A stretch of DNA of 64,000 nucleotides from a bacterium. GTDB taxonomy: Bacteria; Patescibacteriota; Minisyncoccia; Phycocordibacterales; UBA12088. Positions 3,464-54,037 of the stretch are shown here, piece by piece (position 1 is the first letter of the stretch; each line of letters begins with the position of its first letter). The DNA is taken from contig QKEV01000007.1 of NCBI GenBank assembly GCA_003252295.1, forward strand, positions 80,139-144,138, read 5' to 3'. The notes below the pieces were generated by a model, which was not told the DNA's origin, made no database searches, and saw only the letters and a program-made list of their open reading frames with translations. The position numbers and the translations under genes were made by a program.

Positions 3464-4135
3464 GCGCTTCTGAAACTTTCAAGAGACGAGTACGACACAT
3501 ATGCATCTGAGTTTTCTGGTACGAGAAAGTTTTTTTGGCGTGAGCTTGAGTTTCTAAAAGAGTATGTGACACCAGGTTCTAAGATACTTGATATTGGCTG
3601 CGGTAACGGTCGCCTCCTTGATCTCTTTGAGGGTCTAGATATTGAGTACACAGGTATAGACTCTTCAAAAGAGCTTATCGCAATAGCACAAAAAGAAAGA
3701 GGATCACGAGGTGCTTTTATTCATGCTGACGCACTCTCGCTTCCCTTTGAGGATGGTACTTTTGATGTTGTGTTTTCGGTAGCTATGCTACATCATGTGC
3801 CTGATCATAAAAATAGGATGCAGTGTGTTTCTGAGGCGCAGCGTGTTTTGAAGCATGGAGGTACTTGTGTGTTTACTGTCTGGAACACCTTACAGTGGCG
3901 GTTTTTTAAGCAACATCTAGTACAAACAGGTAGAAAACTTTGTGGTCTCTCAGACTTAGATCTTGGTGACATGATCATCACCTTTGGAAAAAAGAAGAGA
4001 AAGCGCTTCGTGCATTCTTTATCAAAGAGAGCACTTCAATCACTCTTTGAGAAAAATAGTTTTTTGGATACTATGGTGAGAGAGGTAAAACGTAAAAGTG
4101 GTTTTGCAAACTTTATAGTAACTGCAAAAAAATAA
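3443..4135 (+). CDS. Class I SAM-dependent methyltransferase, Trm9-like
   Basis: Motif I ILDIGCGNGRLL and motif LHHV. GTG start 6 nt after a TAGTAT box. It is divergent from elp3. Confidence 0.7.
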   Translation: MKKETAQALLKLSRDEYDTYASEFSGTRKFFWRELEFLKEYVTPGSKILDIGCGNGRLLDLFEGLDIEYTGIDSSKELIAIAQKERGSRGAFIHADALSLPFEDGTFDVVFSVAMLHHVPDHKNRMQCVSEAQRVLKHGGTCVFTVWNTLQWRFFKQHLVQTGRKLCGLSDLDLGDMIITFGKKKRKRFVHSLSKRALQSLFEKNSFLDTMVREVKRKSGFANFIVTAKK

Positions 4136-20210: not shown

Positions 20211-21149
20211 CTAGGATTCACTCTCAATTGGATTGTTTTCAATGTAGGAAAATATTTCACTTTCGGTATTTTCTTTTGTATCCTCATCTTCTTCTGAAAA
20301 ATATTTTTCAATGAGACGAAGGAGTGCTTCTTCCTTATGTGCGTCCACATGAAGGTATGTTCCTAGTAACCCTAGGATCTTTAAAGATTTTTTACCAAAA
20401 GAATCACCAACTTTCTTTAAAACCAGCAAGTTCTGAGTAAATAATCCTTTAAGAAAATCTGTGTAAACTTCACGTTTATTAGCAAGTGTATCAATAGCAA
20501 TTTTTTCTACAATAGGATTTAGTACGTCAATATACTCCGCATACATATACTCATTATTTTCCAAATCATTCTCTGAAATACCGTATTCACTCTCAAGATA
20601 TTCTTGATTTTCATAAAGTGTTTGTGATACAAAAAAATCAACAAGCAATTCATTTAAACCTATAAAAGCTTTTTTTTGCTGTGGTTTCCAGTTTGAAACT
20701 ATCTTATATCCTGTCCTTGCTACATTAATATTGTCTTGTGATGCAAAAAATTTTCTTTTTGATACATAGTGTGTCATTTCATGGAGTAGTGTTGTAATAA
20801 GTGTTAGCTGATCTGAACATTTATCAATATTGATATAGATAGCATCTTCAACTGAATCAAATATCCCTCGAGAATTTGTTTCAAATTTATTTATAAAATC
20901 ATCCGATGAAAGTAGATGGATTTTTGAACTATCTATAGCAACTTGTTCATTAAAACCAAGTTCTTCAAGTTTATTAATCAAAAAATCGTTTAAAAAATCA
21001 ATCAATTCAAGCACCTCATTACTTTTAGTGATCTCATTTTCAATCGGTTGAGTAAACTGCTCTCTATACTTATCTAAATCAGCTTTTAAGGTAGTTTTTT
21101 CATCTTCCTTATACGTTCGTGTGCCTATAAAATTTGATTCTATACTCAT
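20211..21149 (-). CDS. HExxH-motif protein, putative zincin-like metallopeptidase. Paralog of 16797..17684 (island gene A).
   Basis: LLHEMTHYVS...ARTGYKIVS...SFGKK. ATG at 21149 (MSIESN...) is 7 nt after the TATACT of the leader. The ORF table starts at an upstream TTG. Confidence 0.55.
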   Translation of the reverse strand: MSIESNFIGTRTYKEDEKTTLKADLDKYREQFTQPIENEITKSNEVLELIDFLNDFLINKLEELGFNEQVAIDSSKIHLLSSDDFINKFETNSRGIFDSVEDAIYINIDKCSDQLTLITTLLHEMTHYVSKRKFFASQDNINVARTGYKIVSNWKPQQKKAFIGLNELLVDFFVSQTLYENQEYLESEYGISENDLENNEYMYAEYIDVLNPIVEKIAIDTLANKREVYTDFLKGLFTQNLLVLKKVGDSFGKKSLKILGLLGTYLHVDAHKEEALLRLIEKYFSEEDEDTKENTESEIFSYIENNPIESES

Positions 21150-21189
21150 AAACACAAGTATACACAAAACATCCTAAGACTCGAACTGA

Positions 21190-21219
21190 AAGAATCAGGT
21201 GATTAATCACCTGATTCTT
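21190..21219. repeat. Perfect 30-nt palindrome aagaatcaggtgatt|aatcacctgattctt between island gene A and tRNA-Gln
   Basis: Exact inverted repeat. Half-sites also occur at 16780-16792 and 58484-58494. Confidence 0.7.
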
Positions 21220-21224
21220 TATTG

Positions 21225-21295
21225 CTGCCGGACTAGGACTCGAACCTAGATTAACGGGACCAAAACCCGTCGTCCTACCATTAGACGATCCGGCA
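21225..21295 (-). tRNA. tRNA-Gln (anticodon UUG)
   Basis: Minus-strand UGCCGGAUCGUCUAAUGGUAGGACGACGGGUUUUGGUCCCGUUAAUCUAGGUUCGAGUCCUAGUCCGGCAG. 7-bp acceptor stem, D-loop AAUGGUAG, anticodon loop UUUUGGU, T-loop GGUUCGAGUCC. CCA is not encoded. Confidence 0.8.
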
Positions 21296-21386
21296 ATTAT
21301 TTACTACCTATTTTCTTTATCATCTCTTCCTGGCAATAAATGTGCCCTACAGAGTACCTTGAAAAGGGCTTTTACTCAAGGTGTTT

Positions 21387-22037
21387 TTAACATTCTGGGC
21401 AGATGTAGCCCTCCTCTACTTTCCAGGTGCCATCGAGTGTGTCACCGTACTCACCATCCGCTGTCCAAGTGGTTTTAAAGACACAGCCGTTCTTTATTTC
21501 CAAGTTCTTCCAGAGCGCCCTCCTGTACCTACCGAGTGGTGACAAGCCGTCATCCTGCATACTTGAACGCATGTTTGCCATGAGTCCGCGGTGGGTCACA
21601 ACGAGGATGTTTTGCTCTTCTCTCCTTGCAAGGCACTGGAGTGCATTAAAAGCGCGCTTCTGAAACTCACCAAGGTTCTCCTCATCACTGTAGTGCCAGT
21701 CATTGTTTCCTGCACGGAAGTACAACTGCCCCATCACCCAGAGCGACTTTGGCGAGAGCCAGCTCCTTCCCTCGAGCTCTGACGGTTTCCTCAACTCCGT
21801 GAAGAACTCGTTGGTCTCAAGTGGTGCTGAGAACATCCTGTTTACAATCTGTGCTGTTTCGTACGCACGCTCATAGGGACTCGTGATCACCAGTTCTATA
21901 GGAAGATTTTTAATTTTTTGAGCAATTGCCTCTGCCTGCTCACGACCAAGCTTTGAAAGTGGTGTATCAGGAGACTGATGCACCACTTTTTTGTTCAACT
22001 CTGTCTGTCCGTGTCGTAAAAAGTAAATTGTTTTCAT
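21387..22037 (-). CDS. Histidine phosphatase family protein (phosphoglycerate-mutase-like)
   Basis: N-terminal IYFLRHGQTELN (RHG catalytic motif). Confidence 0.7.
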   Translation of the reverse strand: MKTIYFLRHGQTELNKKVVHQSPDTPLSKLGREQAEAIAQKIKNLPIELVITSPYERAYETAQIVNRMFSAPLETNEFFTELRKPSELEGRSWLSPKSLWVMGQLYFRAGNNDWHYSDEENLGEFQKRAFNALQCLARREEQNILVVTHRGLMANMRSSMQDDGLSPLGRYRRALWKNLEIKNGCVFKTTWTADGEYGDTLDGTWKVEEGYICPEC

Positions 22038-22042
22038 AATAG

Positions 22043-22717
22043 CTACTGTAATGTGCGAAGTTCACGTGGCAAATGTGAGTAATCGTTCCAAACCTTAAGT
22101 CGCCACTTATTAGCTATTGTAGCATTCTCATGGTGGTCAATAATACTCACCCCTGTGTTTTCAGAGCGTAGGAAGCGGAAGAGTCGTGTTGCAGAAGTAG
22201 GTGCCAACTCACCCTCGTACATCATGGTGTTCAAAAGAATCGAGATAAAAGCGCCGTGCGAGACGAGCATAATGCGCTTTTCGGTACGCTGTGTGAGCAT
22301 ATCCATGATCTCTTGAGAACGTACATGCAAATCCTTGTAGTTATCCTCGTCAGTGTAGCGCCAGTCTGGGTTGTCTATGTTCTTGTAGAGTTCATCATGA
22401 AAATCAAGACTCTCTTTTGAGTTGTACGGTTTATTTACAAGCGAAGTTGGAAGCATGTACTCACGTAACGCATCACACTTCTCTAGTGGTACCTGTGTTT
22501 CCTTCTGCACAATGGATGCTGTTTCAAGTGCGCGATCCATAGTACTTGTGATGATCACCTCAGGAGCAAGCTCTACCGCATGATGCGCAAAATGTTCCGC
22601 TTGCTCACGTCCGAGGTCTGTGAGCTGGTCAGTGTCATCTTGGAACACCTTTTTTACGTTTGCCTCAGTTTGGCCGTGTCGAACTATGAATATTTTTTTT
22701 GACGGAGTACTGAACAT
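22043..22717 (-). CDS. Histidine phosphatase family protein, tandem paralog
   Basis: N-terminal IFIVRHGQTEAN RHG motif and ...LVSHGAF. Confidence 0.7.
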   Translation of the reverse strand: MFSTPSKKIFIVRHGQTEANVKKVFQDDTDQLTDLGREQAEHFAHHAVELAPEVIITSTMDRALETASIVQKETQVPLEKCDALREYMLPTSLVNKPYNSKESLDFHDELYKNIDNPDWRYTDEDNYKDLHVRSQEIMDMLTQRTEKRIMLVSHGAFISILLNTMMYEGELAPTSATRLFRFLRSENTGVSIIDHHENATIANKWRLKVWNDYSHLPRELRTLQ

Positions 22718-22720
22718 ACG

Positions 22721-23758
22721 CTACTTTGCAGGGTCAAGGTGTTCAATAATAGCGAGCTCGAGTGGTAATTGTGGAATATAGGTGGTACCAAGTCGTGTGT
22801 AGGCATCAAGCAAGTGTAAGAGAAACTTTGAGTTTATAAACTGCTTTGAAACACCTGCGTACTGTTCAATCTTTGCAAAATCCTCAGGACTGAACTCTTG
22901 CTGAAGCTCTTTACGCATAGAAGGTGCACTCCTTAAGAGCAGTACCGCACGCACCAAGCGGAGTAAGAGTGTAAGCAGTGTCTGCATGTCAGCGTTTGCG
23001 TCAGTCACCTTTTTTACCACTAAGAGTGTTTTGTCTGAGCTTCCCTCAGCTACAGCATCGAGTAGCTCAAGCAATAGTATACCTCGTGGTGCACCGGAAA
23101 CAGCTTCTATTTCCTCGAGCGATATCTTCTTGTCACTTGAAACACTCAGTGCCTGCTGCAGGTAACCATGTGCATCTCTGAATGACCCATTTGCTAGAAG
23201 GGCAAGCAGCTCTGCACTTCCTGGTTCAAGTTCAAAACCTTCCTTTTTTGCAACACGGGAGATCATGGTGCTCAGTATCTCAACGGTCGGTTTCTTAAAG
23301 GTAAATGACTGACAACGAGAAATGATAGTGTCCGGCAATTTTTCAACCTCAGTTGTAGCAAGGATAAAGACCACGTGCTTTGGTGGCTCCTCTAGAGTCT
23401 TCAAGAGCGCGTTGAACGCTTCTTTCGTAAGCATGTGCACCTCATCAATGACGTACACCTTGTACGGTGACTCAAACGGCAGTGTATGCACTTCCTCACG
23501 GAGCGCACGCACATCATCAATACCGCGGTTACTCGCAGCATCTATTTCATGCAGATCACGGTTCGTAGTGCCTATCCGATCTGCAAAAATACGAGCAAGC
23601 GAGGTTTTACCGGTACCACGTGTACCAGAGAAAAGGTATGCGTGCCCAATGTTTTCCTGCTCTATCGCTCCTCTGAGCGCCTTCACAACATGGTCTTGTC
23701 CTATGACCTCCTTAAAGTTGTTTGGGCGATACTTTCGATAGAGTACGGTCTGTGACAT
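22721..23758 (-). CDS. dnaX: DNA polymerase III clamp-loader subunit (DnaX gamma/tau-like). Short form lacking the Zn module and C-terminal tau domains.
   Basis: GQDHVVKALRGAIEQENIGHAYLFSGTRGTGKTSLARIFA, Walker B VYVIDEVHML, and sensor LEEPPKHVVFILATTE. It could alternatively be HolB-like. Confidence 0.7.
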   Translation of the reverse strand: MSQTVLYRKYRPNNFKEVIGQDHVVKALRGAIEQENIGHAYLFSGTRGTGKTSLARIFADRIGTTNRDLHEIDAASNRGIDDVRALREEVHTLPFESPYKVYVIDEVHMLTKEAFNALLKTLEEPPKHVVFILATTEVEKLPDTIISRCQSFTFKKPTVEILSTMISRVAKKEGFELEPGSAELLALLANGSFRDAHGYLQQALSVSSDKKISLEEIEAVSGAPRGILLLELLDAVAEGSSDKTLLVVKKVTDANADMQTLLTLLLRLVRAVLLLRSAPSMRKELQQEFSPEDFAKIEQYAGVSKQFINSKFLLHLLDAYTRLGTTYIPQLPLELAIIEHLDPAK

Positions 23759-23765
23759 TGAGACA

Positions 23766-24749
23766 TTATACCCTACTTTTGAGATACTGTTGTACCAAAT
23801 CCTCTACCTCATCCACAGAATTTGTGGCAAAAAGTGCTATACGTAGCTCTTTTGAGCCCTTAAAACCAGTGACGTACGCCTTGAAATGTTTCTTCATGAC
23901 CGCAAAGCTCTTGTGTAAACAGTATGACTCATAGAGACGGCAGTGCTCCAGCATGATACGCAATCGTTCTTCTATAGAGGGTTCTTCACTATCGGCAAAA
24001 AACCACGGCTTCCCAAAGATCCCACGACCTACCATGTAGCCATCTGCGCCTGTTTCCCTACATTTCTCTTCACCCTCTGCCACACTCACTACATCACCGT
24101 TCCCTATAATGCGTACATGTGAGAGTCCCATTCTGTCACGCATTTTTACCAGTTCAGCAACATGTTCCCATCTGGCAGGTACGTTCGACATCTCTTTTCG
24201 TGTACGAGCATGCAGGGTTATCGCACTTGGCTCTTCTCTGAGAATCATAGGAAGCCACTCTTCCAGTTCATTCTTGTTGTATCCTATACGTGTCTTTACT
24301 GAGAGCGGTATCCTACCTGCAAGACCTTTCTTAGCACTCTGTATGAGCTCCACAGCGAGCTCTTTTGTCTTCATAAGTGCTGCACCGGCTCCTTGCTTTT
24401 CTATCGCTGTATGAGGGCACCCCATGTTGATATCCATACCATCGAAACCAAGCTCCACAATGAGGTTTGCAACGTACTCCATCATTTCAGGTTTTGAGGT
24501 AAATACCTGCGCAACGATAGGTCGCTCAATCGAAGAGAAACGCAGGTCTTTCATGAGCGGGTTCTCCTCGTCAGGCATCTTCTGTATCTCACGAGTATGG
24601 TAGAGACCATCAGCAGAGACAAATTCAGTCCACATCACGTCCGGCTTTCCGTACTTCGCAATCATCTCACGAAACGGCGCATCAGTGACATCCGCCATAG
24701 GAGCCAAGCATCCGAAAGGAGTTTCTAAACTATCCCAAAAATTAGTCAT
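23766..24749 (-). CDS. tRNA-dihydrouridine synthase (Dus family)
   Basis: DINMGCP...GAGAALM and TIM-barrel Dus motifs. Confidence 0.8.
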   Translation of the reverse strand: MTNFWDSLETPFGCLAPMADVTDAPFREMIAKYGKPDVMWTEFVSADGLYHTREIQKMPDEENPLMKDLRFSSIERPIVAQVFTSKPEMMEYVANLIVELGFDGMDINMGCPHTAIEKQGAGAALMKTKELAVELIQSAKKGLAGRIPLSVKTRIGYNKNELEEWLPMILREEPSAITLHARTRKEMSNVPARWEHVAELVKMRDRMGLSHVRIIGNGDVVSVAEGEEKCRETGADGYMVGRGIFGKPWFFADSEEPSIEERLRIMLEHCRLYESYCLHKSFAVMKKHFKAYVTGFKGSKELRIALFATNSVDEVEDLVQQYLKSRV

Positions 24750-24784
24750 GAAAGGTAGTGTACCGTTCGTAGCAAAAGATGCAA

Positions 24785-27253
24785 TTACTTGAGTTCACTG
24801 AACGTAAAAGTCTCTCCAGGATGCACATTCCCCTTAAGTATCTCATCAGCGAGTGTCTGCTCTACTATTTCCTGAATAGCGTGCTCAAGCGGACGTCCAC
24901 CAAACTTAGGGTTGTAACCCTTTTGCGCTACGTAGTCTATGAGTGCATCATTTACCTCAATATCAATATTCTTTTCATTCTTAATGCGTTTTGCAAACGC
25001 CTTGAGGTGTATTTCTGCTATCTCACGTACATGTGTTGGCTTGAGTGCATGGAAAACAACAACATCATCAAAACGGTTCAGGAACTCTGGTCTGAAACTC
25101 TGACTTGAAACAAGGTGGTCAATGAGTGCATCCTTCTCATTCTCTACATCCTTACCCTCCTTCTCAAGTTCCCATATGAAATCTGCTCCCGCATTACTCG
25201 TCGCAATAATCACCAGGTTGCGCATGTTCACACTCTTTCCAAAACCATCAGTGAAGTGTCCCTCATCGAGTATCTGTAGGAAGAGGTCATGAATACCCCT
25301 GTCTGATTTCTCAAACTCATCAAGCAAGAGTACGCCATACTGACGCTCACGCATAAGTGCATCAAGTCTTCCTGACTTACCTGTTACTGCAGAACCAATG
25401 AGTTCATCAAGTGCATTCACCGACTGGAACTCTGACATGTCTAGGCGAGTCATTGCTTTTTCATCATTGAAGAGCACCTCTGCAAGTGCTTTTGCTGTCT
25501 CTGTCTTTCCTACTCCTGTAGGTCCAAGAAAAAGGAAGGTACCTATTGGTTTTTTAGCACTTCCAATACCAGAACGTGCTCTTCGCAGTGCACGCGATAT
25601 GACATCAACCGCCTTATCCTGTGCTATAACACGTTTGTGAAGTATCTCTTCAAGGTGCAAAAGTTTGTCACGCTCCTCCTTGTCCGGCTCACCTACTGGC
25701 ACATGTGATTTCCTTGTGACAAGTGTGTCTACATGAGCCGGCAAGACCTGATGTATTGAGCTTGAAAGTGCAACAGGTACTAGCTCCTCTAAAAGGTCAT
25801 ACGCCTTGTCAGGCATAACACCTGTTGGGAAGTAACGATCTGCAAGGTCAGCAATATGTTCCAATGCTGGAATACTAAAGACAATATCTGAAGTGCGTTC
25901 ATGCATCATTGCACGCTGTTCAAGCAGCTCAAGTACACCAGTGTTCTGAACATCCTTCATTTGAATAACATCAAATGCTTGTGCGATCCTGCTGTCTCGA
26001 GCCAAGTGTTCATCATAGTTTTCACTCAGTTCTGCGAATACTATTTGAATATTGAGTGACTCAAAGTATGGTGAAAGCAACTCAACAAGATCTACACCGA
26101 TCTTTTGTGTACTCTCAATGATTGCAGAGATGTTCTCCATGTACAAGATTGTGTTGCCTGAAAATACTGCCTGGTTACAAACATCCATCAGCAACTTTTC
26201 AAAAGATTGTTTTTCACCTGAAGCAATGATTACCGACTCAACATCAATGTAATACATCACCTTATCCTCAATAGGTGGAAGTGCGTGACCTTCACGTATT
26301 TTGTGATACAGCTGTGCTGTGCGTACGCGTGCATTAGAAACATCATGCGCAAGCAGGAGCGCGTTACTTTGACGTGACCGACATAGGATGTTCTCTAGAT
26401 CCTCAACCTCATCTTCCTCTTCATGCCGTGTCATGAGTGCACTCTGCCACATAGGATCCTCTGTTAACTCATGCCCATACCGTCGCAACAGGTACGTCTC
26501 ACCGTAACTCCAATCCTTTCCAAGGCCAGGTATTCTGCCAAGGTTGTCACGTGACCACCAACGCTTCGCTCGTCTCTCACGTCGCTCTATGCTTGTTACC
26601 CATTCAGCAGCATGTATGAGCTGCCGTTCATTGATGTTGCATGTCTGTAGGAAATGACGAAATGCCTCATCATACTTATAGACACTTTTGGTGTAGGTAC
26701 TCAACACAACACCACCATCTCTATCTACAATAAACTCTTGCGCGGTAAGCGTTGGTGTACGTTTCTTTTCAAAATCAGCATACATCGCTTCATCAACACC
26801 TGCCCTAAAGAGAATTTCTTGACCAAAGTCAGAATTCAAGAAACCACCTGTGATATCACTATCTGGTGTGTCAAAAATAATGGTGGCAACCTCCCAGCTG
26901 AGTGCAGGGGTTCCCTCATTGCTTCCCTCTTTCAACACTTCCTGCAGACCAGTGAAGTAGTAGGAACGATGCATTGCCTCAAGCGATGAGAAAATAAATG
27001 TGACAGAGAAAATAAGCAGGAACAACCCCCATATCTTAAAAGAAATGAGAGCAATGATATTCAAACCATACAGTGCACCAGCAGGTGATGTATCTAGCGC
27101 AAAAGCAAAAATAGTAACAAACAACAGGAATATGGAGGCAAAAAATAGATTCTGGTTGATACGTTGTCGCACCTCAGGAGAAACTACAGCACGTAATGCA
27201 AGTGCTCCTCCATATAACTTATACATTACCTTTTTAAGTTGGAAGTACGGCAT
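24785..27253 (-). CDS. Membrane-anchored Clp/Hsp100-family AAA+ ATPase with an inactive first AAA+ domain (D1) and an intact second (D2)
   Basis: N-terminal TM helices. The D2 Walker A/B and sensor motifs are intact, and the D1 catalytic motifs are lost. Residue-level detail is in the finding. Confidence 0.65.
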   Translation of the reverse strand: MPYFQLKKVMYKLYGGALALRAVVSPEVRQRINQNLFFASIFLLFVTIFAFALDTSPAGALYGLNIIALISFKIWGLFLLIFSVTFIFSSLEAMHRSYYFTGLQEVLKEGSNEGTPALSWEVATIIFDTPDSDITGGFLNSDFGQEILFRAGVDEAMYADFEKKRTPTLTAQEFIVDRDGGVVLSTYTKSVYKYDEAFRHFLQTCNINERQLIHAAEWVTSIERRERRAKRWWSRDNLGRIPGLGKDWSYGETYLLRRYGHELTEDPMWQSALMTRHEEEDEVEDLENILCRSRQSNALLLAHDVSNARVRTAQLYHKIREGHALPPIEDKVMYYIDVESVIIASGEKQSFEKLLMDVCNQAVFSGNTILYMENISAIIESTQKIGVDLVELLSPYFESLNIQIVFAELSENYDEHLARDSRIAQAFDVIQMKDVQNTGVLELLEQRAMMHERTSDIVFSIPALEHIADLADRYFPTGVMPDKAYDLLEELVPVALSSSIHQVLPAHVDTLVTRKSHVPVGEPDKEERDKLLHLEEILHKRVIAQDKAVDVISRALRRARSGIGSAKKPIGTFLFLGPTGVGKTETAKALAEVLFNDEKAMTRLDMSEFQSVNALDELIGSAVTGKSGRLDALMRERQYGVLLLDEFEKSDRGIHDLFLQILDEGHFTDGFGKSVNMRNLVIIATSNAGADFIWELEKEGKDVENEKDALIDHLVSSQSFRPEFLNRFDDVVVFHALKPTHVREIAEIHLKAFAKRIKNEKNIDIEVNDALIDYVAQKGYNPKFGGRPLEHAIQEIVEQTLADEILKGNVHPGETFTFSELK

Positions 27254-27256
27254 ACA

Positions 27257-27643
27257 CTATGAAAATGTTATCAGCTCAACACCATAGATAATGAGAAACA
27301 GTAGCAATAATGGTGCAAGCAACCATATGAAAAAGAACAATGTGCCAGCAACGATTGTAAGGAGTATGAATAACAACCCAACAATAATGAGCAATGTTCG
27401 CATCACAAAACCGACCAGGCGCATGAGTGTATTTACGGTGAGAGCAGTAAAAAATGCCTCAAAATGCAAACCTTTTCCTTCGTATGACTCACCTAAACGA
27501 CGAAACGGGGCAAAAAGTGTACGCACCATGAGTGGTAAGGAAAAAAAGTTGTAGAAGAACCACACAAAATTACGAACGATATTGATATAATCAACTATCG
27601 CCTTACCGTAATGCCACCGTACATAGTAAATCAGCAAACGCAT
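27257..27643 (-). CDS. Small polytopic membrane protein, hypothetical
   Basis: 128 aa, 3-4 TM helices. Confidence 0.45.
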   Translation of the reverse strand: MRLLIYYVRWHYGKAIVDYINIVRNFVWFFYNFFSLPLMVRTLFAPFRRLGESYEGKGLHFEAFFTALTVNTLMRLVGFVMRTLLIIVGLLFILLTIVAGTLFFFIWLLAPLLLLFLIIYGVELITFS

Positions 27644-27681
27644 ATTACTTTTGTGCTTCTACTATAGCATGAAGTATATAC

Positions 27682-28572
27682 TCACTCCTCAACGTTATCA
27701 CCGAAATATCTCACAAATGCTTTATTTCCAAAACGCAGATCTATGTACTCGACATCTTTTTCAGCATCAATAGAGTCTGAGCCAAGCAAGGCAAACAATC
27801 GACGAGATATAACCTCGACATCTTCTTCACGTGGTATGAGCAACTTGTAACCGTTAGTGAGATACACCTCAACATCATGTTCATCCACAAACAGCATGGC
27901 ATGCGCTGGAAGGTTATTGTCATTCAGTATCTTGTTAAAGTACTGCCAACGTGTGAAGTTTTCAGTATCTATGTACTGCTGAGCTATTGGCTCTGCTTTT
28001 GTGAGTGACCCATAGTACCGTGGCAACACCGTCCCACTATACTGTGGTGCACGTGCGTAAATGTAACCAGTTTTATCAACAAGGTAGCAGGTACCCCAGA
28101 GATTGTCTGAAGTGTCATCAAGGTCAGATAGCTTTACGTATGCTATCGGTGGCACCACGTCGCCACACCACAACGCAGCAGGTGTTCGTTCATGTACAGC
28201 TACATGTAAGTTGTAGAAATCAGTTCGTGTAATAGCGACATCTTCTATTCTCGGGAATGCCTCTATGAGAGAAGCTTTCAAGTTTTTATGTGAAAAACGA
28301 AACACGGTGTCATGCGGAACAACTCCAAAAAAGGTCCCTGTGACACTTTCTGCAAGCGAGTTAGTAAGCATGTCCTGACCGATAATCCCATCAGTCTCAA
28401 TAGTGAGTTCTGTAAGTCGAAACACATCAAGATGGATAACATATACCATGAGTGCACAAAACAACGCTACACCTACGAGCATGGCACCACTTTTCAAGGC
28501 AACACGAACACGTTCACGTTTTCTTGCTTGTTCTGTTCTAAACTTGCGCTTGGCTATCATGTGGTGGTTCAA
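27682..28572 (-). CDS. ftsQ: Cell division protein FtsQ/DivIB-like (TM plus POTRA)
   Basis: Cytoplasmic basic N-terminus and a single TM. POTRA-like LTIETDG...PRIEDVAITRTDFYNLHVAVHERTPAALW matches the FtsQ V.R..P..L.V.V.ER.P.A.W pattern. Confidence 0.55.
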   Translation of the reverse strand: MNHHMIAKRKFRTEQARKRERVRVALKSGAMLVGVALFCALMVYVIHLDVFRLTELTIETDGIIGQDMLTNSLAESVTGTFFGVVPHDTVFRFSHKNLKASLIEAFPRIEDVAITRTDFYNLHVAVHERTPAALWCGDVVPPIAYVKLSDLDDTSDNLWGTCYLVDKTGYIYARAPQYSGTVLPRYYGSLTKAEPIAQQYIDTENFTRWQYFNKILNDNNLPAHAMLFVDEHDVEVYLTNGYKLLIPREEDVEVISRRLFALLGSDSIDAEKDVEYIDLRFGNKAFVRYFGDNVEE

Positions 28573-29833
28573 TACGATCTTTACCCATGTACGGACGTAG
28601 TACCTCAGGTATCACTATTGAGCCATCAGCTTGCTGATAGTTCTCTACGATCGGTACGAGCGCTCTTGGTGTCGCCAAGGCGGTATTGTTCAAAGAATGG
28701 ACAAACTGCATACGACCATTGTCATCTTTGTAGCGTATATTGAGTCTCCTTGTCTGGAAATCATGGAAGTATGATGCTGAATGAGTCTCTCGATACTTTC
28801 CCTCAGATGGCACCCACGCCTCAATATCATACTTCTTTACCTGACCAAGTCCGATATCGCCACCACAATTCACAACTACATGGTACGGTATCCCAAGTGC
28901 TTGCATGAGCTTCTCTGAGTTTTGTGTGATCTCTTCATGGAACTTCACAGACTCCTCGTGGTTTGCCTCACAGAGCACCACCTGCTCGATCTTGAAGAAC
29001 TCATGTACACGGATAAGACCCTTCGTGTCTTTTCCATGACTTCCAGCTTCTCTTCGGAAGCAAGGTGAAAATGCAATAAACTTCATTGGTAAGTCCTTCT
29101 TCTCAACTACCTCATCCATAAAGTAACTCATCATGGCAACTTCAGCGGTACCTGCAAGGAAATCACCATCCTGTGTCTTATAAAGGTCTTCCTCAGACTG
29201 CGGCAAGTAGCCGGTACCCATAAATGGCTCACGTCGCACCATACTTGGTACGAGCATTTCCTTGTACTCTGGGTGCTCCTTTGCAAACGTGTCAAACACA
29301 AACTGCCAAAGTGCAAATGAAAGCTTCAGGCCATCACCAGTGAGGTAGTATCCGCGAAATCCTGATGTCTTAGTACCGCGCTCAAGGTCAATCATACCTA
29401 GGTTCTGCATGAGCTCTATATGACTCTTTGGTTCAAAATCAAACTTGGTAACTTCACCTACAACGCGCACCTCCTGGTTATCTGCATCACTCTCTCCCTC
29501 AGGCACCGTCATGTCAGGTATGTTTGGTACATGAAGCATCAAGAGCTGCCACTGCTTAATAGTACGCTTCAGGTCAGCTTCGTCCTTTTGTAAACCGTCC
29601 TTTAGGGTTTTCATCTCTGCAATCATTTTTTCACGTTCATCCGACGACGAAGCCTGTGCTATTTTTGTGCTCATCTCATTTTGGGATGCGCGCTTCTCAT
29701 CAAAGGCTTGCTGGAGCTTTTTACGCTTGTCGTCAAGACGCATGAGCTTATCGAGGTCAACATCGATATGCTTTTTCTTGGCGGCAGCTTTCACGAGGCT
29801 CAGATTTTCTCGTATGAACTTAATATCTAACAT
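28538..29833 (-). CDS. serS: Seryl-tRNA synthetase
   Basis: The MLDIKFIRENLSLV start, N-terminal coiled-coil, class II aaRS core and 431-aa length are all typical of SerRS. Confidence 0.9.
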   Translation of the reverse strand: MLDIKFIRENLSLVKAAAKKKHIDVDLDKLMRLDDKRKKLQQAFDEKRASQNEMSTKIAQASSSDEREKMIAEMKTLKDGLQKDEADLKRTIKQWQLLMLHVPNIPDMTVPEGESDADNQEVRVVGEVTKFDFEPKSHIELMQNLGMIDLERGTKTSGFRGYYLTGDGLKLSFALWQFVFDTFAKEHPEYKEMLVPSMVRREPFMGTGYLPQSEEDLYKTQDGDFLAGTAEVAMMSYFMDEVVEKKDLPMKFIAFSPCFRREAGSHGKDTKGLIRVHEFFKIEQVVLCEANHEESVKFHEEITQNSEKLMQALGIPYHVVVNCGGDIGLGQVKKYDIEAWVPSEGKYRETHSASYFHDFQTRRLNIRYKDDNGRMQFVHSLNNTALATPRALVPIVENYQQADGSIVIPEVLRPYMGKDRIEPPHDSQAQV

Positions 29834-29988
29834 ACTCCCTAATTAACTCCGTACGTAACTACGGAGCACTTGTAATGTATTTTAGTGTAGCATGTTAGCG
29901 CCCTTTTGCCAGAATTACGTACCTATTGACTAGGCAACCATTGTGTTCTATAAAATACATAGAGGGTACATTATTCAAAACAATATAG

Positions 29989-30420
29989 ATGGAGGTTGCT
30001 ATGGAAACAAACACGTACATGATACAAGTCAATTTGGAGGTCAATCCTGATACAGAAAACGTACTCACCTTCTCTCACAAGGGTATCGAATTTGGGAGGC
30101 ATGCGCACCAGGAACTTACGTGGTTAGAAGGAGAGACATGTTCAATAGCCATAACATCTATTGTCTGGAAGGATTTTATTAAAAAGACAAATCTTGCCGA
30201 CCTGTTTAAACCTTTACGAGGAAAATTGTCTTCAACATTCATGCGTGCAATGTACGATTACAAGGAACATCTACCTATGCTCGATTGTGATTTAGTTACA
30301 AACTATTGGCGATTCTTTCCTGCAGCAGAACCAGATGACATCATGCTGTGGGCAATAACCAAAGTTGATGACGCTGTGTTCAGAAGCAAAAAAAGGTCGG
30401 ACTTTATAGTCACCAACTAG
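29989..30420 (+). CDS. Hypothetical protein. Likely start ATG 30001, preceded by GGAGG.
   Basis: ORF with canonical SD GATGGAGGTTGCT-ATG. No motif recognised. Confidence 0.4.
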   Translation: MEVAMETNTYMIQVNLEVNPDTENVLTFSHKGIEFGRHAHQELTWLEGETCSIAITSIVWKDFIKKTNLADLFKPLRGKLSSTFMRAMYDYKEHLPMLDCDLVTNYWRFFPAAEPDDIMLWAITKVDDAVFRSKKRSDFIVTN

Positions 30421-42746: not shown

Positions 42747-43670
42747 TTATTTCTCGTCCCCAACTGCAAGGAGAACATTTATCGCTTTAGTAATGATCGG
42801 AAGCATGTCATGGTAGAAGTTGAGCTCAAGAATATCAGCAAGCTTAAACCAACGCGCATCATCAAGCCCTCCTTTGTCTTCTAGCACAATATCCTTAAAA
42901 GGTGCTTCAACAAGGAAATAGGTAACATTTTTACGTATCTTTCCTTTTTCCGGATTTGAAGCAACGTACTCATTCTCACCTAGTTTTTCTTTAATCGTTA
43001 CCTCAAGACCCAGTTCCTGTTTGATCTCACGAACCGTACCTTCCTCCTCGGTCTCAGCATCTTCGATGCCACCCTTTGCCAAGGTCCAGTGTCCAAAGAC
43101 ATCATGTACGAGTGCAACATACATATCACCCTCATGTTGGGCATACACCACAGCACCACCTTTTCGCTCAATTGGCATCTTTTCATATGGCACCATTGGC
43201 ATTTTCTTTTTCTTTTTTGATGTCTCGTCCTTACCTGGTTCACCAAGCTCTTTATAAACACCACCAATAACACCATTCACAAATGCACCTGATGAATCAC
43301 CACCAAAATTCTTTGCAAGCTCAATCGCCTCATTAATAGCAACTTTTGCAGGCACCTCAGCGCGATCAGCAAACAAAAGCTCATAGAGTCCTATACGCAA
43401 GATATTTCTATCTACTCGAGCTATCTTGTCGAGTGGCCACTCCGGTGCTGCTTTTGTAATAACAGCATCAAGATCTTCTTGTTTTGTTAGTACACCATCA
43501 AGGAGCCGCTTCATAAACGGCTTGTCTTTTGTAGTATCAGTAAATTCTTTGATGTTGCGGTCAAGAATTACCTCAGGCGTTTCTGCCTCGGTTTTACCTT
43601 CTTCTGTGTTCATGTCCCACTCAAAGAGTGTTTGCAGAACTATTGACCTTGATAGGTGTCTATTCGACAT
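42747..43670 (-). CDS. nusB: NusB-like antitermination domain fused to a C-terminal NUDIX hydrolase domain
   Basis: The N-terminal ~150 aa is a NusB fold. The C-terminal half has the Nudix box GGIEDAETEEEGTVREIKQELGLEV (REx2EExGU). Confidence 0.65.
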   Translation of the reverse strand: MSNRHLSRSIVLQTLFEWDMNTEEGKTEAETPEVILDRNIKEFTDTTKDKPFMKRLLDGVLTKQEDLDAVITKAAPEWPLDKIARVDRNILRIGLYELLFADRAEVPAKVAINEAIELAKNFGGDSSGAFVNGVIGGVYKELGEPGKDETSKKKKKMPMVPYEKMPIERKGGAVVYAQHEGDMYVALVHDVFGHWTLAKGGIEDAETEEEGTVREIKQELGLEVTIKEKLGENEYVASNPEKGKIRKNVTYFLVEAPFKDIVLEDKGGLDDARWFKLADILELNFYHDMLPIITKAINVLLAVGDEK

Positions 43671-50750: not shown

Positions 50751-53246
50751 TTATTTTGAATCAAAGTGCTCGAATGCTTTTGCAAGAGCAATCTTTGTGC
50801 CGATACGATTACTTGAGTAGCTGTAGTCAATACACTCCACGAGAATACCCAGTACCTTTTCAAAATCCTCATTAGACCAAGATGCTGTCTTGTACACGAG
50901 GTCCTCGTTAGGTGTACGATTCCCCTCAATACGATCCTTGTATACCTCATCAAGTTCTCGAACCACGAGCGTGATGAAAGCAGCCACATCAACACCGCGT
51001 GTTGTAATGCTGCGCATAAGATCGAACGCCTCCTTCTTTTTTACGAGTACGAGGTAGTCGAGGAATGCTGCCACAAGATTTTGTGACGGCGATCCATTAT
51101 TGTTTTTCTTTGGAGCTCTCTCTGCCTGCTCACGGTGAGCAGGTGCTTGAGGTCGCGGCATATCTGCAACAGGTTGGCTAGTACCATTTCTATGGGTAAG
51201 TGTTTCCTTCATTGCCTTTGGTTCAACACGAAATGGTCGTTGTACCTCCTCTTCCTCAGCGTCTTCTGTTCGAGCAGTAGCCTGTGCAACTGGTTCGGTA
51301 TTTGCTACAGAAACTTGTGCCTCAGCAGTACCCTGTTCAGAAAGAAGTAGCTCAGCACGCTCTTTTGAGAGCAGTATCCAACCATCTTCACGTGGATACT
51401 CAGCCTTAGCTTTCTCAATAAGGTGCGACATAAATGTAGCAACACCCTCTCCAGATGCTATAAGTGTAGCTTGAATAAGTCGGAACGCTTCTGGTGAAAG
51501 AAGAATATTCTCACCATGTGACATTTCCTCAATCTCTGATGGTTCATGACTATTCTGGGAGATAGCCGTTGCACTCACATGTGTGACCTGACTTGCAACC
51601 GGCGCCATCATCTCAACAACACGCGTCCCTTTATCTTGTTCATTTTCAGTATGAGCAAAGACCATACGAATACGCTCTGCCACCTGATAACGTGTCGCAA
51701 AGTAAGCAATAAGTACACTCAACGCAAAGACTCCAGTCCAAAACGTTACCGTTAGAAGCGGTCCCGCCTCAAAACCAGTGTATGGTACCTGATCAAGCGT
51801 AATAGTTCCTCCAGACTTTGTTATAGTTTTACCAAGAATGATGGTTGGATTTGGATCATTGTCGTCGTCATCATCGTCATCATCATCGTCACAATTTAAA
51901 CAACTACCTCCTCCTGTCTTAACAGCAACCGTTGCTGAACAGGTAACTGAGTTACCATCAGCATCAGTAAAGGTTCCTGTATAGGTTGTCTTGTCGTTAA
52001 CAATAACGCTCTTGTTCCCATTCAAAGCAACAGAACCTATACCGTTATCGATCACCGCTGTTACGGCTTCATCACTCGTCCAAGTGATCACAGAGGTGTA
52101 TCCCTTGGTATCTTTTGTTGGTGAAGCACTCATCGTACAAGCAAGTTCCGGCTCGTCCGTATGGTGTCGTACCGTCAATGTTGCCTCACAGGTAAGTGGA
52201 TCACTTCCGTCCGTTGTGTAGAACGTTCCTACGTATGTTGTCGTAGTTGCTGGTGATACCAAACTGGAACCAAGGACATCCAAACCTGTACCGATCTCTG
52301 TAATATCTACAGACGATACAAGGTAACTGTCCCAGCTAATGGTTGAGCTGTCACCATCATATATACTTGTTGGATCTGCACTTAGTTCACACCATGGTTC
52401 ATCCGGTTCCTCTTGTCGTTCAAAAGCAACACAGATAGGTACAACTGAGTTTGGTGAAGAGTTATCCGGGTACACGTGATGTACCACTGCAACTGCAGTT
52501 CCATCTTCAGTAAGCGTAAATGCATCAGTAAAGGTGTCCTTCTCCATTGTCTCAACAACAAAGTCATCAAGCTCGGTTGTAGGACCAACAGATGCTAGTA
52601 CGTCACCGTTCCCGTCACGCACCTCTGTGTCCCATTTTTCATTGAACTGCTCAGAGTATATACGATCAGCATACCCATCCCATGATGCAGTGTATACATT
52701 ATATGTACCTGCTAGTAGGGCTGTATTTGAAACAAGCTCGTAAGGACCGGCACCGTTTGAGAAAAGTGTCGTGTCCCAGTTCTTATCACCGGCACTGTTG
52801 AACTCAACAACAATCGTGTCATCAGAAGCGGTAAACGGGCATGCAGGCACCTTTGGCTCCTCTGGAGGACGTACGGTAACCGTTGCTGAACATTCGTAGT
52901 AGTCAGAGGTGCTCGCCATTGTTGCACGTGCTATGTACGTCGTTGTCTCAGTTGGCGAGACGCTAGTGGAACCTGTAAGACCTGGCCATTCCTCACCTGG
53001 TAGCTGATCAATCGTTACCGTGATAGTGTCAGGATCATCTTCAGGACCCTCAAAAAATTGCCATGCAAGTGTTGATGACTCACCCTGATCGATCACCTCG
53101 GGTGTTGCTGTCATGTCAACACAGTGCCATGCAAGCACACTACTTGGTGCTACCGCTAGCACTCCAAAGAATGCCGCTACGGCCACCATGTATACTGCGC
53201 TCTGTTTTATGTATGCAACCATGATACTTTTTTTATAATTATTCAT
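50751..53246 (-). CDS. Large membrane / cell-surface protein: signal, Thr/Ser-rich extracellular beta-rich region, poly-Asp run, internal sorting-signal-like motif, one TM and a ~330-aa cytoplasmic C-terminal domain
   Basis: CLNCDDDDDDDDDDNDPNP, then VPYTG + hydrophobic LLTVTFWTGVFALSVLIAYF + RYQVAERIR, then a soluble domain. Confidence 0.5.
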   Translation of the reverse strand: MNNYKKSIMVAYIKQSAVYMVAVAAFFGVLAVAPSSVLAWHCVDMTATPEVIDQGESSTLAWQFFEGPEDDPDTITVTIDQLPGEEWPGLTGSTSVSPTETTTYIARATMASTSDYYECSATVTVRPPEEPKVPACPFTASDDTIVVEFNSAGDKNWDTTLFSNGAGPYELVSNTALLAGTYNVYTASWDGYADRIYSEQFNEKWDTEVRDGNGDVLASVGPTTELDDFVVETMEKDTFTDAFTLTEDGTAVAVVHHVYPDNSSPNSVVPICVAFERQEEPDEPWCELSADPTSIYDGDSSTISWDSYLVSSVDITEIGTGLDVLGSSLVSPATTTTYVGTFYTTDGSDPLTCEATLTVRHHTDEPELACTMSASPTKDTKGYTSVITWTSDEAVTAVIDNGIGSVALNGNKSVIVNDKTTYTGTFTDADGNSVTCSATVAVKTGGGSCLNCDDDDDDDDDDNDPNPTIILGKTITKSGGTITLDQVPYTGFEAGPLLTVTFWTGVFALSVLIAYFATRYQVAERIRMVFAHTENEQDKGTRVVEMMAPVASQVTHVSATAISQNSHEPSEIEEMSHGENILLSPEAFRLIQATLIASGEGVATFMSHLIEKAKAEYPREDGWILLSKERAELLLSEQGTAEAQVSVANTEPVAQATARTEDAEEEEVQRPFRVEPKAMKETLTHRNGTSQPVADMPRPQAPAHREQAERAPKKNNNGSPSQNLVAAFLDYLVLVKKKEAFDLMRSITTRGVDVAAFITLVVRELDEVYKDRIEGNRTPNEDLVYKTASWSNEDFEKVLGILVECIDYSYSSNRIGTKIALAKAFEHFDSK

Positions 53247-53278: not shown

Positions 53279-54037
53279 CTAAAGTGCATATTTTGATACT
53301 AATGTTGCGATCACTACCCATCGCTCCTCTTTCGCGCCAAAATTATTGCACGTTACGAGCGTTAGTGATGGCTCACTAGCATCAAAAGATACCTCAGCGT
53401 CACCAGCATCTGAAAGGAACACTTCATTTACTGAGTACACGTACCTGTGTGTAGCAGAGTACACATCGATCGTGTCACCCACACTGAGCTTGTTGAGTTC
53501 ATTGAAGGCCTTGTACGCCTTGTTGTAAACAACAGGTAAATGACTTGAGTGTCCAAATATGAGTACATTTGCATTTTGACCAAGCATTCCTGATCCAGGA
53601 TAGTACACAGCACCACTCAAGAGTGCCGTATCAAGTGAAGCAATGTCTGCTTCTTCTGGAGCAAGTACAACAGTATCAATACCAACATCGGTAGCTACTA
53701 TACGCACCGGCAGCTCGGTTTCAGAAGAATAGACAACGTTTCCCGCAACAGTTGTTGCAGTACTATCAGACGCACCGTCAGTAGCAAGTACCACAGCACC
53801 CACAGTGGATACTGTTTCTACTACTTCATTATTTACGACGAGAGTATCTTCTACAGGAGAAGATACCGTAATGGTTGCTTCTGGGTCGCCTTCAGCGCGA
53901 ATTGTCAGCTCGGGAACAAAGTCGATAGCAAATAGAAAAGTGGCAAATAACACAAAAATGCCAAAGGTCTGAAGGTAAAACACCTTGTAACCAGTAGCAA
54001 CTCCATGTGTATTCTTTTGTGTATTTTGCGCTTCCAT
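53279..54037 (-). CDS. Sortase-family transpeptidase
   Basis: N-terminal TM. Catalytic His (LIFGHSSHL), Cys (LTLVTCNNFG) and Arg (EERWVV). Confidence 0.75.
   Translation of the reverse strand: MEAQNTQKNTHGVATGYKVFYLQTFGIFVLFATFLFAIDFVPELTIRAEGDPEATITVSSPVEDTLVVNNEVVETVSTVGAVVLATDGASDSTATTVAGNVVYSSETELPVRIVATDVGIDTVVLAPEEADIASLDTALLSGAVYYPGSGMLGQNANVLIFGHSSHLPVVYNKAYKAFNELNKLSVGDTIDVYSATHRYVYSVNEVFLSDAGDAEVSFDASEPSLTLVTCNNFGAKEERWVVIATLVSKYAL

Follow-up and report, generated by a model that had tools for sequence, protein, structure and literature searches.

The 64-kb window considered here (the whole stretch of DNA that was analyzed, positions 80,139 to 144,138 of contig QKEV01000007.1) carries a minus-strand gene for an 822-residue protein related to the Clp/Hsp100 ATPases, and immediately upstream of it a gene for a 128-residue membrane protein. 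We refer to the two products as the ATPase and its partner. Textbooks present Hsp100/Clp proteins as soluble machines that thread their substrates with two motors, and the ATPase is predicted to depart from this paradigm in four respects: it is membrane-integral, it has one active ring, it has lost the canonical residues that grip substrates, and its gene is strictly tied to that of a small membrane protein. An earlier reading of the locus made from the letters alone (hereafter the sequence-only reading) had called such a membrane-tethered Hsp100 with a single active ring atypical. The architecture stands, but it is no one-off, since the ATPase belongs to a large lineage-specific family. The locus represents neither a new fold nor, as yet, a new principle; rather, it is a mis-annotated, lineage-defining two-gene module. 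Coordinates of the features are collected in Table 1.

Table 1. Features of the ATPase, its partner and the adjacent genes, numbered from the first nucleotide of the window (TM, transmembrane; ORF, open reading frame; AF2, AlphaFold2).
Feature	Position	Strand	Remarks
ATPase gene, 822 residues, predicted membrane-anchored Hsp100-like protein	24785..27253	-	ATG start; stop codon 24785-24787; from the ORF list
Residues 1-31, basic N-terminal helix, predicted cytoplasmic	27161..27253	-	motif MPxxxLxxxxxxxYxPALxLR...R
TM helix 1, residues 32-54	27092..27160	-	Kyte-Doolittle maximum 2.40; AF2 helix 26-55
TM helix 2, residues 73-95	26969..27037	-	Kyte-Doolittle maximum 2.38; AF2 helix 71-107
Residues 96-117			family-conserved juxtamembrane motif EAxHRSYYF, then flexible linker
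Residues 118-230, helical domain, putative divergent Clp_N-fold N-domain	26564..26902	-	
Residues 229-252, inserted loop between N-domain and D1	26498..26569	-	AKRWWSRDNLGRIPGLGKDWSYGE
Residues 253-497, degenerate D1 AAA+ module	25763..26497	-	large and small subdomains, without M-domain insertion
Residues 300-310, lost D1 Walker A position	26324..26356	-	LLAHDVSNARV
Residues 368-375, D1 Walker B position	26129..26152	-	TILYMENI; catalytic Asp-Glu lost
Residues 498-822, D2 AAA+ module and ClpB_D2-small	24788..25762	-	catalytic motifs complete
D2 Walker A, residues 577-584	25502..25525	-	GPTGVGKT; identical in 39/39 members
D2 pore loop 1, residues 620-628	25370..25396	-	GSAVTGKSG; HMMER and MAFFT alignments
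D2 Walker B, residues 641-646	25316..25333	-	VLLLDE; invariant
Partner gene, 128-residue membrane protein	27257..27643	-	stop 3 nucleotides before the ATPase start
FtsQ/DivIB-like gene	27682..28572	-	one TM helix and POTRA/FtsQ C-domain; PF03799, 7.4e-7
serS	28538-29833		array member
dus	23766-24749		array member
short dnaX	22721-23758		array member; 345-residue product

As judged from its sequence, the ATPase is by descent a class-I Clp/Hsp100 protein with a putative Clp_N fold followed by D1, D2 and D2-small. Pfam recognizes AAA_2 (PF07724, residues 568-730, 1.5e-39) and ClpB_D2-small (PF10431, residues 737-817, 1.5e-22), and AAA_lid_9 at residues 443-492 lies near its threshold (22.7 bits versus a cutoff of 22.8). 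The highest-ranking NCBIfam models are ClpB (TIGR03346, the top match), ClpA, ClpG, ClpV and ClpK, all far under their equivalog cutoffs, with 359.8 bits versus 1232.1 for ClpB (TIGR03346 / NF008118) and 325.6 versus 993 for ClpA. An AF2 model generated from 39 family sequences has a mean confidence score (pLDDT) of 83.6, and Foldseek aligns this model over ~580 columns with the D1-D2 chains of ClpC, ClpC1 and ClpB at structural similarity scores (TMt) of 0.77-0.80, with ClpC and ClpC1 as the top matches. When phmmer was used against PDB sequences, residues 255-492 aligned to residues 160-398 of E. coli ClpB D1 (domain E-value, i-E, of 4e-9), and residues 500-816 aligned to ClpB D2 (2e-79). 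Homology of the N-terminal AAA+ region to D1 is therefore real, because both the phmmer alignment and the Foldseek match to D1-D2 chains include it. An FtsH identity was also considered and rejected, as neither Peptidase_M41 nor FtsH gives a match in Pfam or NCBIfam.

The sequence-only reading also proposed that the protein begins with TM helices, and this is borne out by the family. Two TM segments, at residues ~32-54 and ~73-95, occur in all 39 aligned homologues, down to 33% identity, and AF2 renders both as long helices (pLDDT 84-90). A further helix precedes them at residues 3-23 (pLDDT 84-89), and L20 and R29 are conserved in at least 90% of members. The mean number of lysines plus arginines is 5.4 before the first TM segment, 0.5 in the intervening loop and 2.4 after the second. 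An arrangement in which both ends of the hairpin face the cytoplasm fits these values because their distribution follows the positive-inside rule, and the loop at residues 55-72 (~17 residues) is poor in lysine and arginine, which is consistent with a location on the outer side of the membrane. We conclude from these sequence features that the ATPase is anchored by a conserved N-terminal TM hairpin.

Translation starts further downstream (M10, V28, L44 and others) were examined as candidates and ruled out. Approximately 70 homologues of ~820 residues, recovered by a word-indexed search at 33-63% identity, span 100% of the query from residue 1, and those of 598 cluster representatives that are full-length likewise match a profile of residues 1-262 from residue 1 onward. 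Because the N-terminus is conserved from its first residue in both the homologues and the profile matches, the TM helices cannot be a product of start mis-calling. Both grounds on which the sequence-only reading could have failed, this one and an N-terminal region unrelated to D1, were thus checked and do not apply.

The D1 module of the ATPase has kept its fold and lost its motifs. The absence of both Walker motifs, noted in the sequence-only reading, is confirmed by the alignments, in which ClpB NPVLIGEPGVGKT corresponds to NALLLAHDVSNAR at the Walker A position, such that the core GEPGVGKT has become AHDVSNAR, and ILFIDELH at the Walker B position has become ILYMENIS. The losses extend to the arginine fingers (ERRF in ClpB, AQAF in the ATPase) and to the pore loop, where KYRG is replaced by GEKQ and the tyrosine position is now acidic. 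What is retained is the lid helix near the C-terminal end of D1, where VMPDKAYDLLEE aligns to ClpB QLPDKAIDLIDE, again as the earlier reading had it. A complete Walker A sequence of the form GxGK[ST] is found in the D1 of none of 106 family members; GxGK remains in 10 of these, never with serine or threonine next to it.

This loss is family-wide and graded, as evident by the D1 Walker A sequences GEPGVGKM in P0065 and GDPGAGKK in P0072. Moreover, a distant 791-residue member found through its partner gene (L062:6357-8732, plus strand) carries an intact D1 with GDAGTGKTS and ILFLDEA. This protein has the TM hairpin and the partner gene, lacks the inserted loop between the N-domain and D1 that is described below, and has a D2 pore loop without an aromatic residue and without the flanking glycine. 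The graded decay and the intact D1 of the L062 member together suggest a membrane-anchored ancestor with two active rings, and the L062 protein may represent this ancestral state. To our knowledge, no earlier account exists of a bacterial Hsp100 whose D1 has become inactive.

Column identity within D1 is 0.40-0.48, versus 0.43 for D2-small. D1 is therefore under selection, because it is conserved as much as D2-small, and this pattern of sequence conservation indicates that the module is retained for a non-catalytic role. NSF D2 and Pex1/Pex6 D1 offer parallels in which an inactive tier serves as a structural or oligomerization scaffold and the other tier hydrolyzes ATP, although neither is an Hsp100 and their clade is another one. 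The conservation of D1 also rules out decay of a pseudogene. Indeed, the notion that the gene is an artefact, either a decaying pseudogene or a mis-called start with spurious TM helices, draws on the loss of D1 motifs and nothing further, whereas the N-terminus is conserved at full length in hundreds of clusters, D1 is conserved and the AF2 model is confident. We give this explanation practically no chance.

The sequence-only reading described D2 as fully intact, which is correct for catalysis and incorrect for the pore. In addition to the Walker motifs, the sensor-1 sequence TSN (residues 685-687), the arginine finger R727 and the sensor-2 residue R787 are invariant in the family, and the module is 40-45% identical to the D2 of ClpB and ClpC. 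On the strength of these motifs, we consider D2 to be catalytically competent and the sole such tier in the ATPase. However, D2 pore loop 1 reads GSAVTGKSG versus GAPPGYVGYEEGG in ClpB/ClpC, which makes it four residues shorter and devoid of aromatic residues. In canonical D2 modules of ClpB and ClpC, the tyrosine of this loop drives threading. A survey of 106 non-redundant members found phenylalanine, tyrosine or tryptophan in the short loop of 70 (consensus GSFETG) and none of these in 36. Therefore, as far as the alignments indicate, neither ring of the ATPase carries a canonical substrate paddle, and the aromatic position of the D2 pore loop is less strictly constrained than in Hsp100s that thread. 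A stronger proposition, that conservation within D2 is lowest in the pore-loop window, proved wrong, as the window ranks 137 of 316 and its flanking glycines are invariant.

Two further elements of familiar Hsp100s are absent. A search for the ClpP-docking [ILV]G[FL] loop after D2 sensor-1, a check that the sequence-only reading had called for, found neither an insertion nor an x-G-F/L tripeptide in the ATPase or in any of the 39 members, and ClpC-type controls in the same alignment (P0078 and P0082) display LGF and FGF insertions at this position. The M-domain is also missing, as evident by the phmmer alignment, in which the stretch from 398 to 528 in ClpB is matched by only 492 to 500 in the query, such that ~120 residues are lacking. 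No coupling to DnaK is expected because the ATPase is without the M-domain coiled coil.

These data bear on the possibility that the ATPase is an ordinary disaggregase of the ClpB/ClpC type or a ClpP partner with an incidental membrane anchor. The databases take this view, in that both the Joint Genome Institute and NCBI name homologues 'ATP-dependent Clp protease ATP-binding subunit ClpC/ClpA', and the extent of D2 identity is in keeping with such a role. ClpB (from E. coli and T. thermophilus) and Hsp104 share with the ATPase the domain order from Clp_N fold (putative in the ATPase) through D1 and D2 to D2-small, the best D2 sequence match and the lack of a ClpP loop. Unlike these proteins, the ATPase has a TM hairpin, an inserted loop and an obligate small partner, and it is without the M-domain coiled coil, D1 Walker A and B motifs, arginine fingers in D1 and the pore-loop tyrosine in both rings. 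Similarly, ClpC and ClpA resemble the ATPase in providing the top Foldseek matches (ClpC/ClpC1), in the absence of an M-domain (as in ClpA) and in the labels used by databases, but the ATPase differs from them in having no [ILV]G[FL] loop, a dead D1 and a membrane anchor. Given also the low equivalog scores and the non-canonical pore loops, we find an ordinary Clp function very unlikely. Current annotations are thus wrong in naming the ATPase a 'ClpC/ClpA protease subunit' and its partner a 'hypothetical protein', and the ClpC/ClpA label is unfit for inferring ClpP-dependent proteolysis in Patescibacteria genomes that carry the ATPase.

The small membrane protein mentioned in the sequence-only reading as one of two neighbours, along with FtsQ, is indeed present, as is FtsQ, but it is the former that proves to be the relevant partner. 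Its N-terminal part of ~80 residues carries the motifs WHY, FFS, TLFxP(F/W)xR and N..MR..G...R, and its C-terminal part is a TM hairpin at residues 83-125. Hydropathy and charge profiles identify this hairpin cleanly, and residues 23-41 are weakly hydrophobic. The invariant residues are T42, F44, P46 and R82, together with P111 within the hairpin. This distribution suggests that the ~80-residue part, which holds all invariant residues except the hairpin P111, is membrane-peripheral and cytoplasmic. Searches of Pfam, NCBIfam and PADLOC returned no specific match for the partner; chance matches to generic membrane families occurred in 1-2 of 35 members.

Coupling between the two genes is strict. 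All 56 loci with upstream sequence have a homologue of the partner directly upstream of the ATPase gene and in the same orientation; five loci without a partner are excluded from this count, each having only 0-2 nucleotides of upstream sequence. Conservation of the neighbourhood, which the earlier reading had suggested examining, thus holds first of all for this pair. The pair persists in ~15 loci that lack both serS and ftsQ, where it is found among unrelated neighbours, such as the HD-domain and MacB genes of L005. In the converse direction, a profile search for the partner recovered 121 standalone proteins of 115-172 residues, and the three most distant of those inspected (L061-L063) are each followed by a gene for a membrane Clp-like protein with a 4-nucleotide overlap, in contexts that include UvrD in Yanofskybacteria, MacB/FtsX and the serS-ftsQ block. 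The 4-nucleotide overlap in these loci or the 3-nucleotide gap in the window suggests that translation of the partner and the ATPase is coupled.

The two proteins also occur as in-frame fusions, which arose independently and are found on two metagenomic contigs. In the first (L064:51-2489, plus strand), the complete partner module is joined to the N-domain, D1 and D2 and takes the place of the ATPase hairpin. The match covers positions 9-114 of the profile hidden Markov model with an E-value of 2.9e-29, and the WHY motif lies upstream of the called start, which is too late. In the second (L065:3505-5400, plus strand), a shorter partner module (positions 40-105, E-value 1.1e-12) is joined to a sequence resembling the inserted loop, followed by D1 and D2. 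This variant is without an N-domain and keeps the D1 Walker A sequence GSQGVGKTT, and its called start at 3628 truncates the partner module. The C-terminus of the partner should therefore be cytoplasmic, because it is this end that is fused to the ATPase. From genomic coupling of this kind, we conclude that the small membrane protein is an obligate partner of the ATPase.

In one metagenome-assembled genome (MAG) from NCBI, the partner gene is present but uncalled (L005:6600-7064, plus strand). The ATPase start called at this locus probably lies 20 codons too far upstream; translation is likely to begin at MKIQDIP, which overlaps the partner stop codon.

Conservation within the ATPase is greatest in neither AAA+ module. 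The best-conserved segment is the linker loop RWWSRDNLGRIPGLGK at residues 229-252, hereafter the RWW loop, with a mean column identity of 0.68 versus 0.59 for the large subdomain of D2. This insertion has no counterpart in canonical ClpB/ClpC in a MAFFT alignment, and its pLDDT of 54-58 in the AF2 model indicates that the loop is probably flexible.

A scan for RWWS[RK][DE]xLG[RTL], covering one genome per species, identified 55 loci, which belong to MAGs of the Parcubacteria/Paceibacterota type (Kaiser-, Adler-, Nomura-, Taylor- and Sungbacteria). The lone exception (L015, CAZRSD010000301.1) is a 2-kb contig binned as Myxococcales, which probably reflects contamination of the bin and not a true family member from outside the Candidate Phyla Radiation (CPR). 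Many of the 55 loci are in third-party-annotation MAGs labelled 'uncultured Ca. Saccharibacteria', a label that could not be verified. An exhaustive profile search yielded 598 representatives of clusters at 50% identity at an E-value of 1e-3 or below, 404 at 1e-10 and 228 at 1e-30. Where homologues have names, these are 'ClpC', 'ClpA' or 'hypothetical', and the organisms given are Patescibacteria or Pacebacteria. By these sequence searches, the family is large, with ~600 clusters at 50% identity, and is seen only in Patescibacteria. The window carries every feature by which we propose to recognize the family: an N-terminal TM hairpin, the RWWS[RK][DE]xLG loop, a degenerate D1 and a WHY/TLFxPFxR protein encoded directly upstream. 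The literature searched, which leaves most subscription journals outside its coverage, yielded no account of the partner or of any bacterial Hsp100 that is membrane-anchored or has a dead D1.

How might such a protein operate? Our preferred reading, held tentatively and with slightly less than even confidence, is that the ATPase and its partner constitute a D2-driven, two-component membrane machine that acts independently of ClpP and DnaK on proteins embedded in or close to the membrane. By homology with ClpB and ClpC, the ATPase would form a hexamer, whose 12 hairpin helices, together with the hairpins of the partner, would hold the face formed by the N-domain and D1 to the cytoplasmic side of the membrane. 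In structures of ClpA, ClpB and ClpC, the N-domain/D1 face is the side where substrates enter, and by analogy the entry face of the ATPase would be the one tethered to the membrane. D1 would serve as a scaffold for assembly and docking and D2 as the sole motor, and the cytoplasmic motifs of the partner (TLFxPFxR and others) together with the RWWSRDNLGRIPG loop of the ATPase could form an interface or a site for client recognition. Hydrolysis of ATP by D2 would then pull on or remodel clients entering from the membrane side, resulting in extraction or unfolding of the type carried out by dislocases, and this activity would be uncoupled from proteolysis by ClpP and from DnaK.

Known proteins provide precedents for parts of this scheme. 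FtsH uses two N-terminal TM helices to keep the entry side of its AAA+ ring at the cytoplasmic membrane, and the ATPase resembles it as a bacterial membrane protein with two such helices and a predicted entry face at the membrane. However, FtsH has a single AAA module of the classic clade with a conserved pore-loop phenylalanine, a periplasmic domain and an M41 protease fused to it, whereas the ATPase has two tiers of the HCLR clade, no protease and an outside loop of ~17 residues. Msp1/ATAD1 is likewise an N-terminally anchored AAA+ protein, and Msp1 extracts membrane proteins, but it does so with a single ring and a strongly aromatic pore loop (KWYG). Skd3 (human CLPB) has a single active ring of the D2 type that is independent of Hsp70 and ClpP and is made as a precursor with a hydrophobic N-terminal segment, and its structures 7us2 and 8zr0 are among the PDB matches that align to D2 of the ATPase. 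In contrast with the ATPase, Skd3 has ankyrin repeats where the ATPase has its N-domain and D1, keeps the essential tyrosine of GYVG and is soluble after processing. By analogy, the ATPase may work most like a hybrid, with the anchor and entry side of FtsH or Msp1, the single D2 motor of Skd3 and possibly an element of the torsins discussed below.

Several observations weigh against this membrane-machine reading. Aromatic residues are missing from both rings, with D1 KYRG changed to GEKQ and the D2 loop that carries GYVG shortened, and the 36 relatives without a D2 aromatic share the latter loss. Processive threading of the kind performed by ClpB or FtsH is therefore doubtful, because the gripping aromatics are lost in both rings. 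For the same reasons, the word 'unfoldase' used in the sequence-only reading is an assumption and not something read from the sequence. In addition, the operon context says little on function because the genes lie in a tightly packed eight-gene array.

The same observations lend weight to a mechanism without threading, wherein conformational changes of D2 gate, assemble or regulate the partner or a complex that contains it, in a manner akin to torsins with LAP1/LULL1 or to MoxR proteins. Torsins are Clp-D2-like, membrane-associated proteins that have no aromatic pore loops and that need a membrane-spanning partner, LAP1 or LULL1, and the ATPase may resemble them in having both a membrane partner and a non-aromatic pore. 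A switch or remodeller of this type would be in keeping with a D2 loop that is four residues short and that has no aromatic in the ATPase, L061, L062 and the other such members of the 36; with the acidic residue in place of the D1 pore-loop tyrosine; with the fact that the most conserved element is the RWW loop and not a pore loop; and with the strict 1:1 coupling of partner and ATPase, which extends to fusions. However, 70 of the 106 members keep an aromatic residue (F or Y) in the loop, the arginine finger, both sensors and D2-small are exactly as in threading Hsp100s, and the putative Clp_N fold is retained, a domain that binds substrates or adaptors in known Hsp100s. Torsins also differ in being eukaryotic proteins of the endoplasmic reticulum lumen with a single AAA module whose arginine finger is supplied by the partner, whereas R727 of the ATPase is invariant and its partner is not AAA-like. 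We regard this switch mechanism as possible but on balance improbable.

A more specific and more speculative version can be formulated, in which a non-threading motor derived from an Hsp100, with a dead D1 and pores without aromatics, is joined to the partner, through gene adjacency or fusion, in a transmembrane assembly of at least 24 helices and serves as a lineage-defining machine of the patescibacterial envelope that might act in division, in the biogenesis of surface structures or in remodelling at host contact. We consider this version unlikely. If true, a non-threading action would be a new mechanical principle for the Clp/Hsp100 family.

A further candidate is a motor for export or insertion, with the ring and the partner helices forming a conduit, as with HSP101 on PTEX or with Bcs1. 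HSP101 of PTEX resembles the ATPase as a class-I Hsp100 that acts at a membrane with partner proteins, but it is a soluble protein in which both rings are active, and its D2 face is the one that docks to the pore. The polarity of Hsp100s, which runs from the N-domain and D1 to D2, would lead away from the membrane in the ATPase since its anchor is N-terminal, and its pore loops are degenerate. An export role by analogy with these systems is thus highly improbable.

Whichever mechanism applies, the module provides a test case for AAA+ proteins regarding the purpose of a dead D1 tier, of pore-loop aromatics and of a Clp_N domain at the membrane. For the CPR/Patescibacteria, it is a conserved, lineage-specific two-gene module, often located beside ftsQ, in organisms where very few components of the envelope or of cell division are understood.

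The pair in the window resides in a co-directional array of eight genes, serS-ftsQ-small-clp-dus-dnaX-gpm-gpm, with gaps of 38 nucleotides or fewer. A gene for an FtsQ-like protein is immediately upstream of the pair here and in 41 loci, whose ATPases are 33-68% identical, and the locus L063 has a gene for a YkuD/Peptidase_S11 wall enzyme directly downstream. The frequency of ftsQ synteny makes a client in the envelope or in cell division plausible. This linkage could be taken further, to propose that the pair is a factor for cell division or envelope biogenesis that works with FtsQ and remodels or extracts components of the divisome or of wall synthesis at the septum, a role that rests on synteny and is compatible with either threading or a switch mechanism. 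However, the pair occurs without ftsQ or serS in ~15 loci (about a quarter), and also in L061 and L062, and the block includes serS, dus and dnaX, such that the linkage may be frozen synteny in a streamlined genome. Such a role with FtsQ strikes us as quite unlikely.

Other features of the array deserve mention. The 3′ end of serS overlaps the FtsQ-like ORF, which has a TTG start, by 35 nucleotides (28538-28572), and the FtsQ start may be a downstream codon. Two tandem His_Phos (phosphoglycerate-mutase-like) paralogues follow dnaX (21387-22717, minus strand), a block whose synteny extends to L002 and L003. A scan of positions 21000-30400 found promoter-like sites in smaller numbers than in shuffled sequences and terminator-like sites at chance level, and was thus uninformative.

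The remainder of the 64-kb window holds housekeeping genes (rpoB/C, dnaE, gyrB, pheT, a thrS-type synthetase, rnc, trmD and a sortase) at ~42% guanine plus cytosine, and the closest genomic relatives are MAGs of the Parcubacteria group. A protein identical to the ATPase is recorded on a 154-kb contig in NCBI, JGI and Logan. No ClpP, ClpX or canonical Clp gene is present in this window. A role in anti-phage defence was considered and rejected because the context consists of housekeeping genes; PADLOC gives only generic matches to the D2 core (DolB, PDC-M37B) and none for the partner.

Three other ORFs of the window are of separate note, all on the minus strand. A 318-residue ORF at 20211-21167 has no Pfam match and carries an HExxH motif within LLHEMTHYV, making it a possible unclassified zinc metallopeptidase. 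The ORF at 42747-43670 (307 residues) is an unusual fusion in which NusB (residues 7-139) precedes a NUDIX hydrolase domain (residues 175-293). Finally, an 831-residue ORF without a Pfam match (50751-53246) lies directly downstream of the sortase gene (53279-54037) and may encode a sortase-anchored surface protein.

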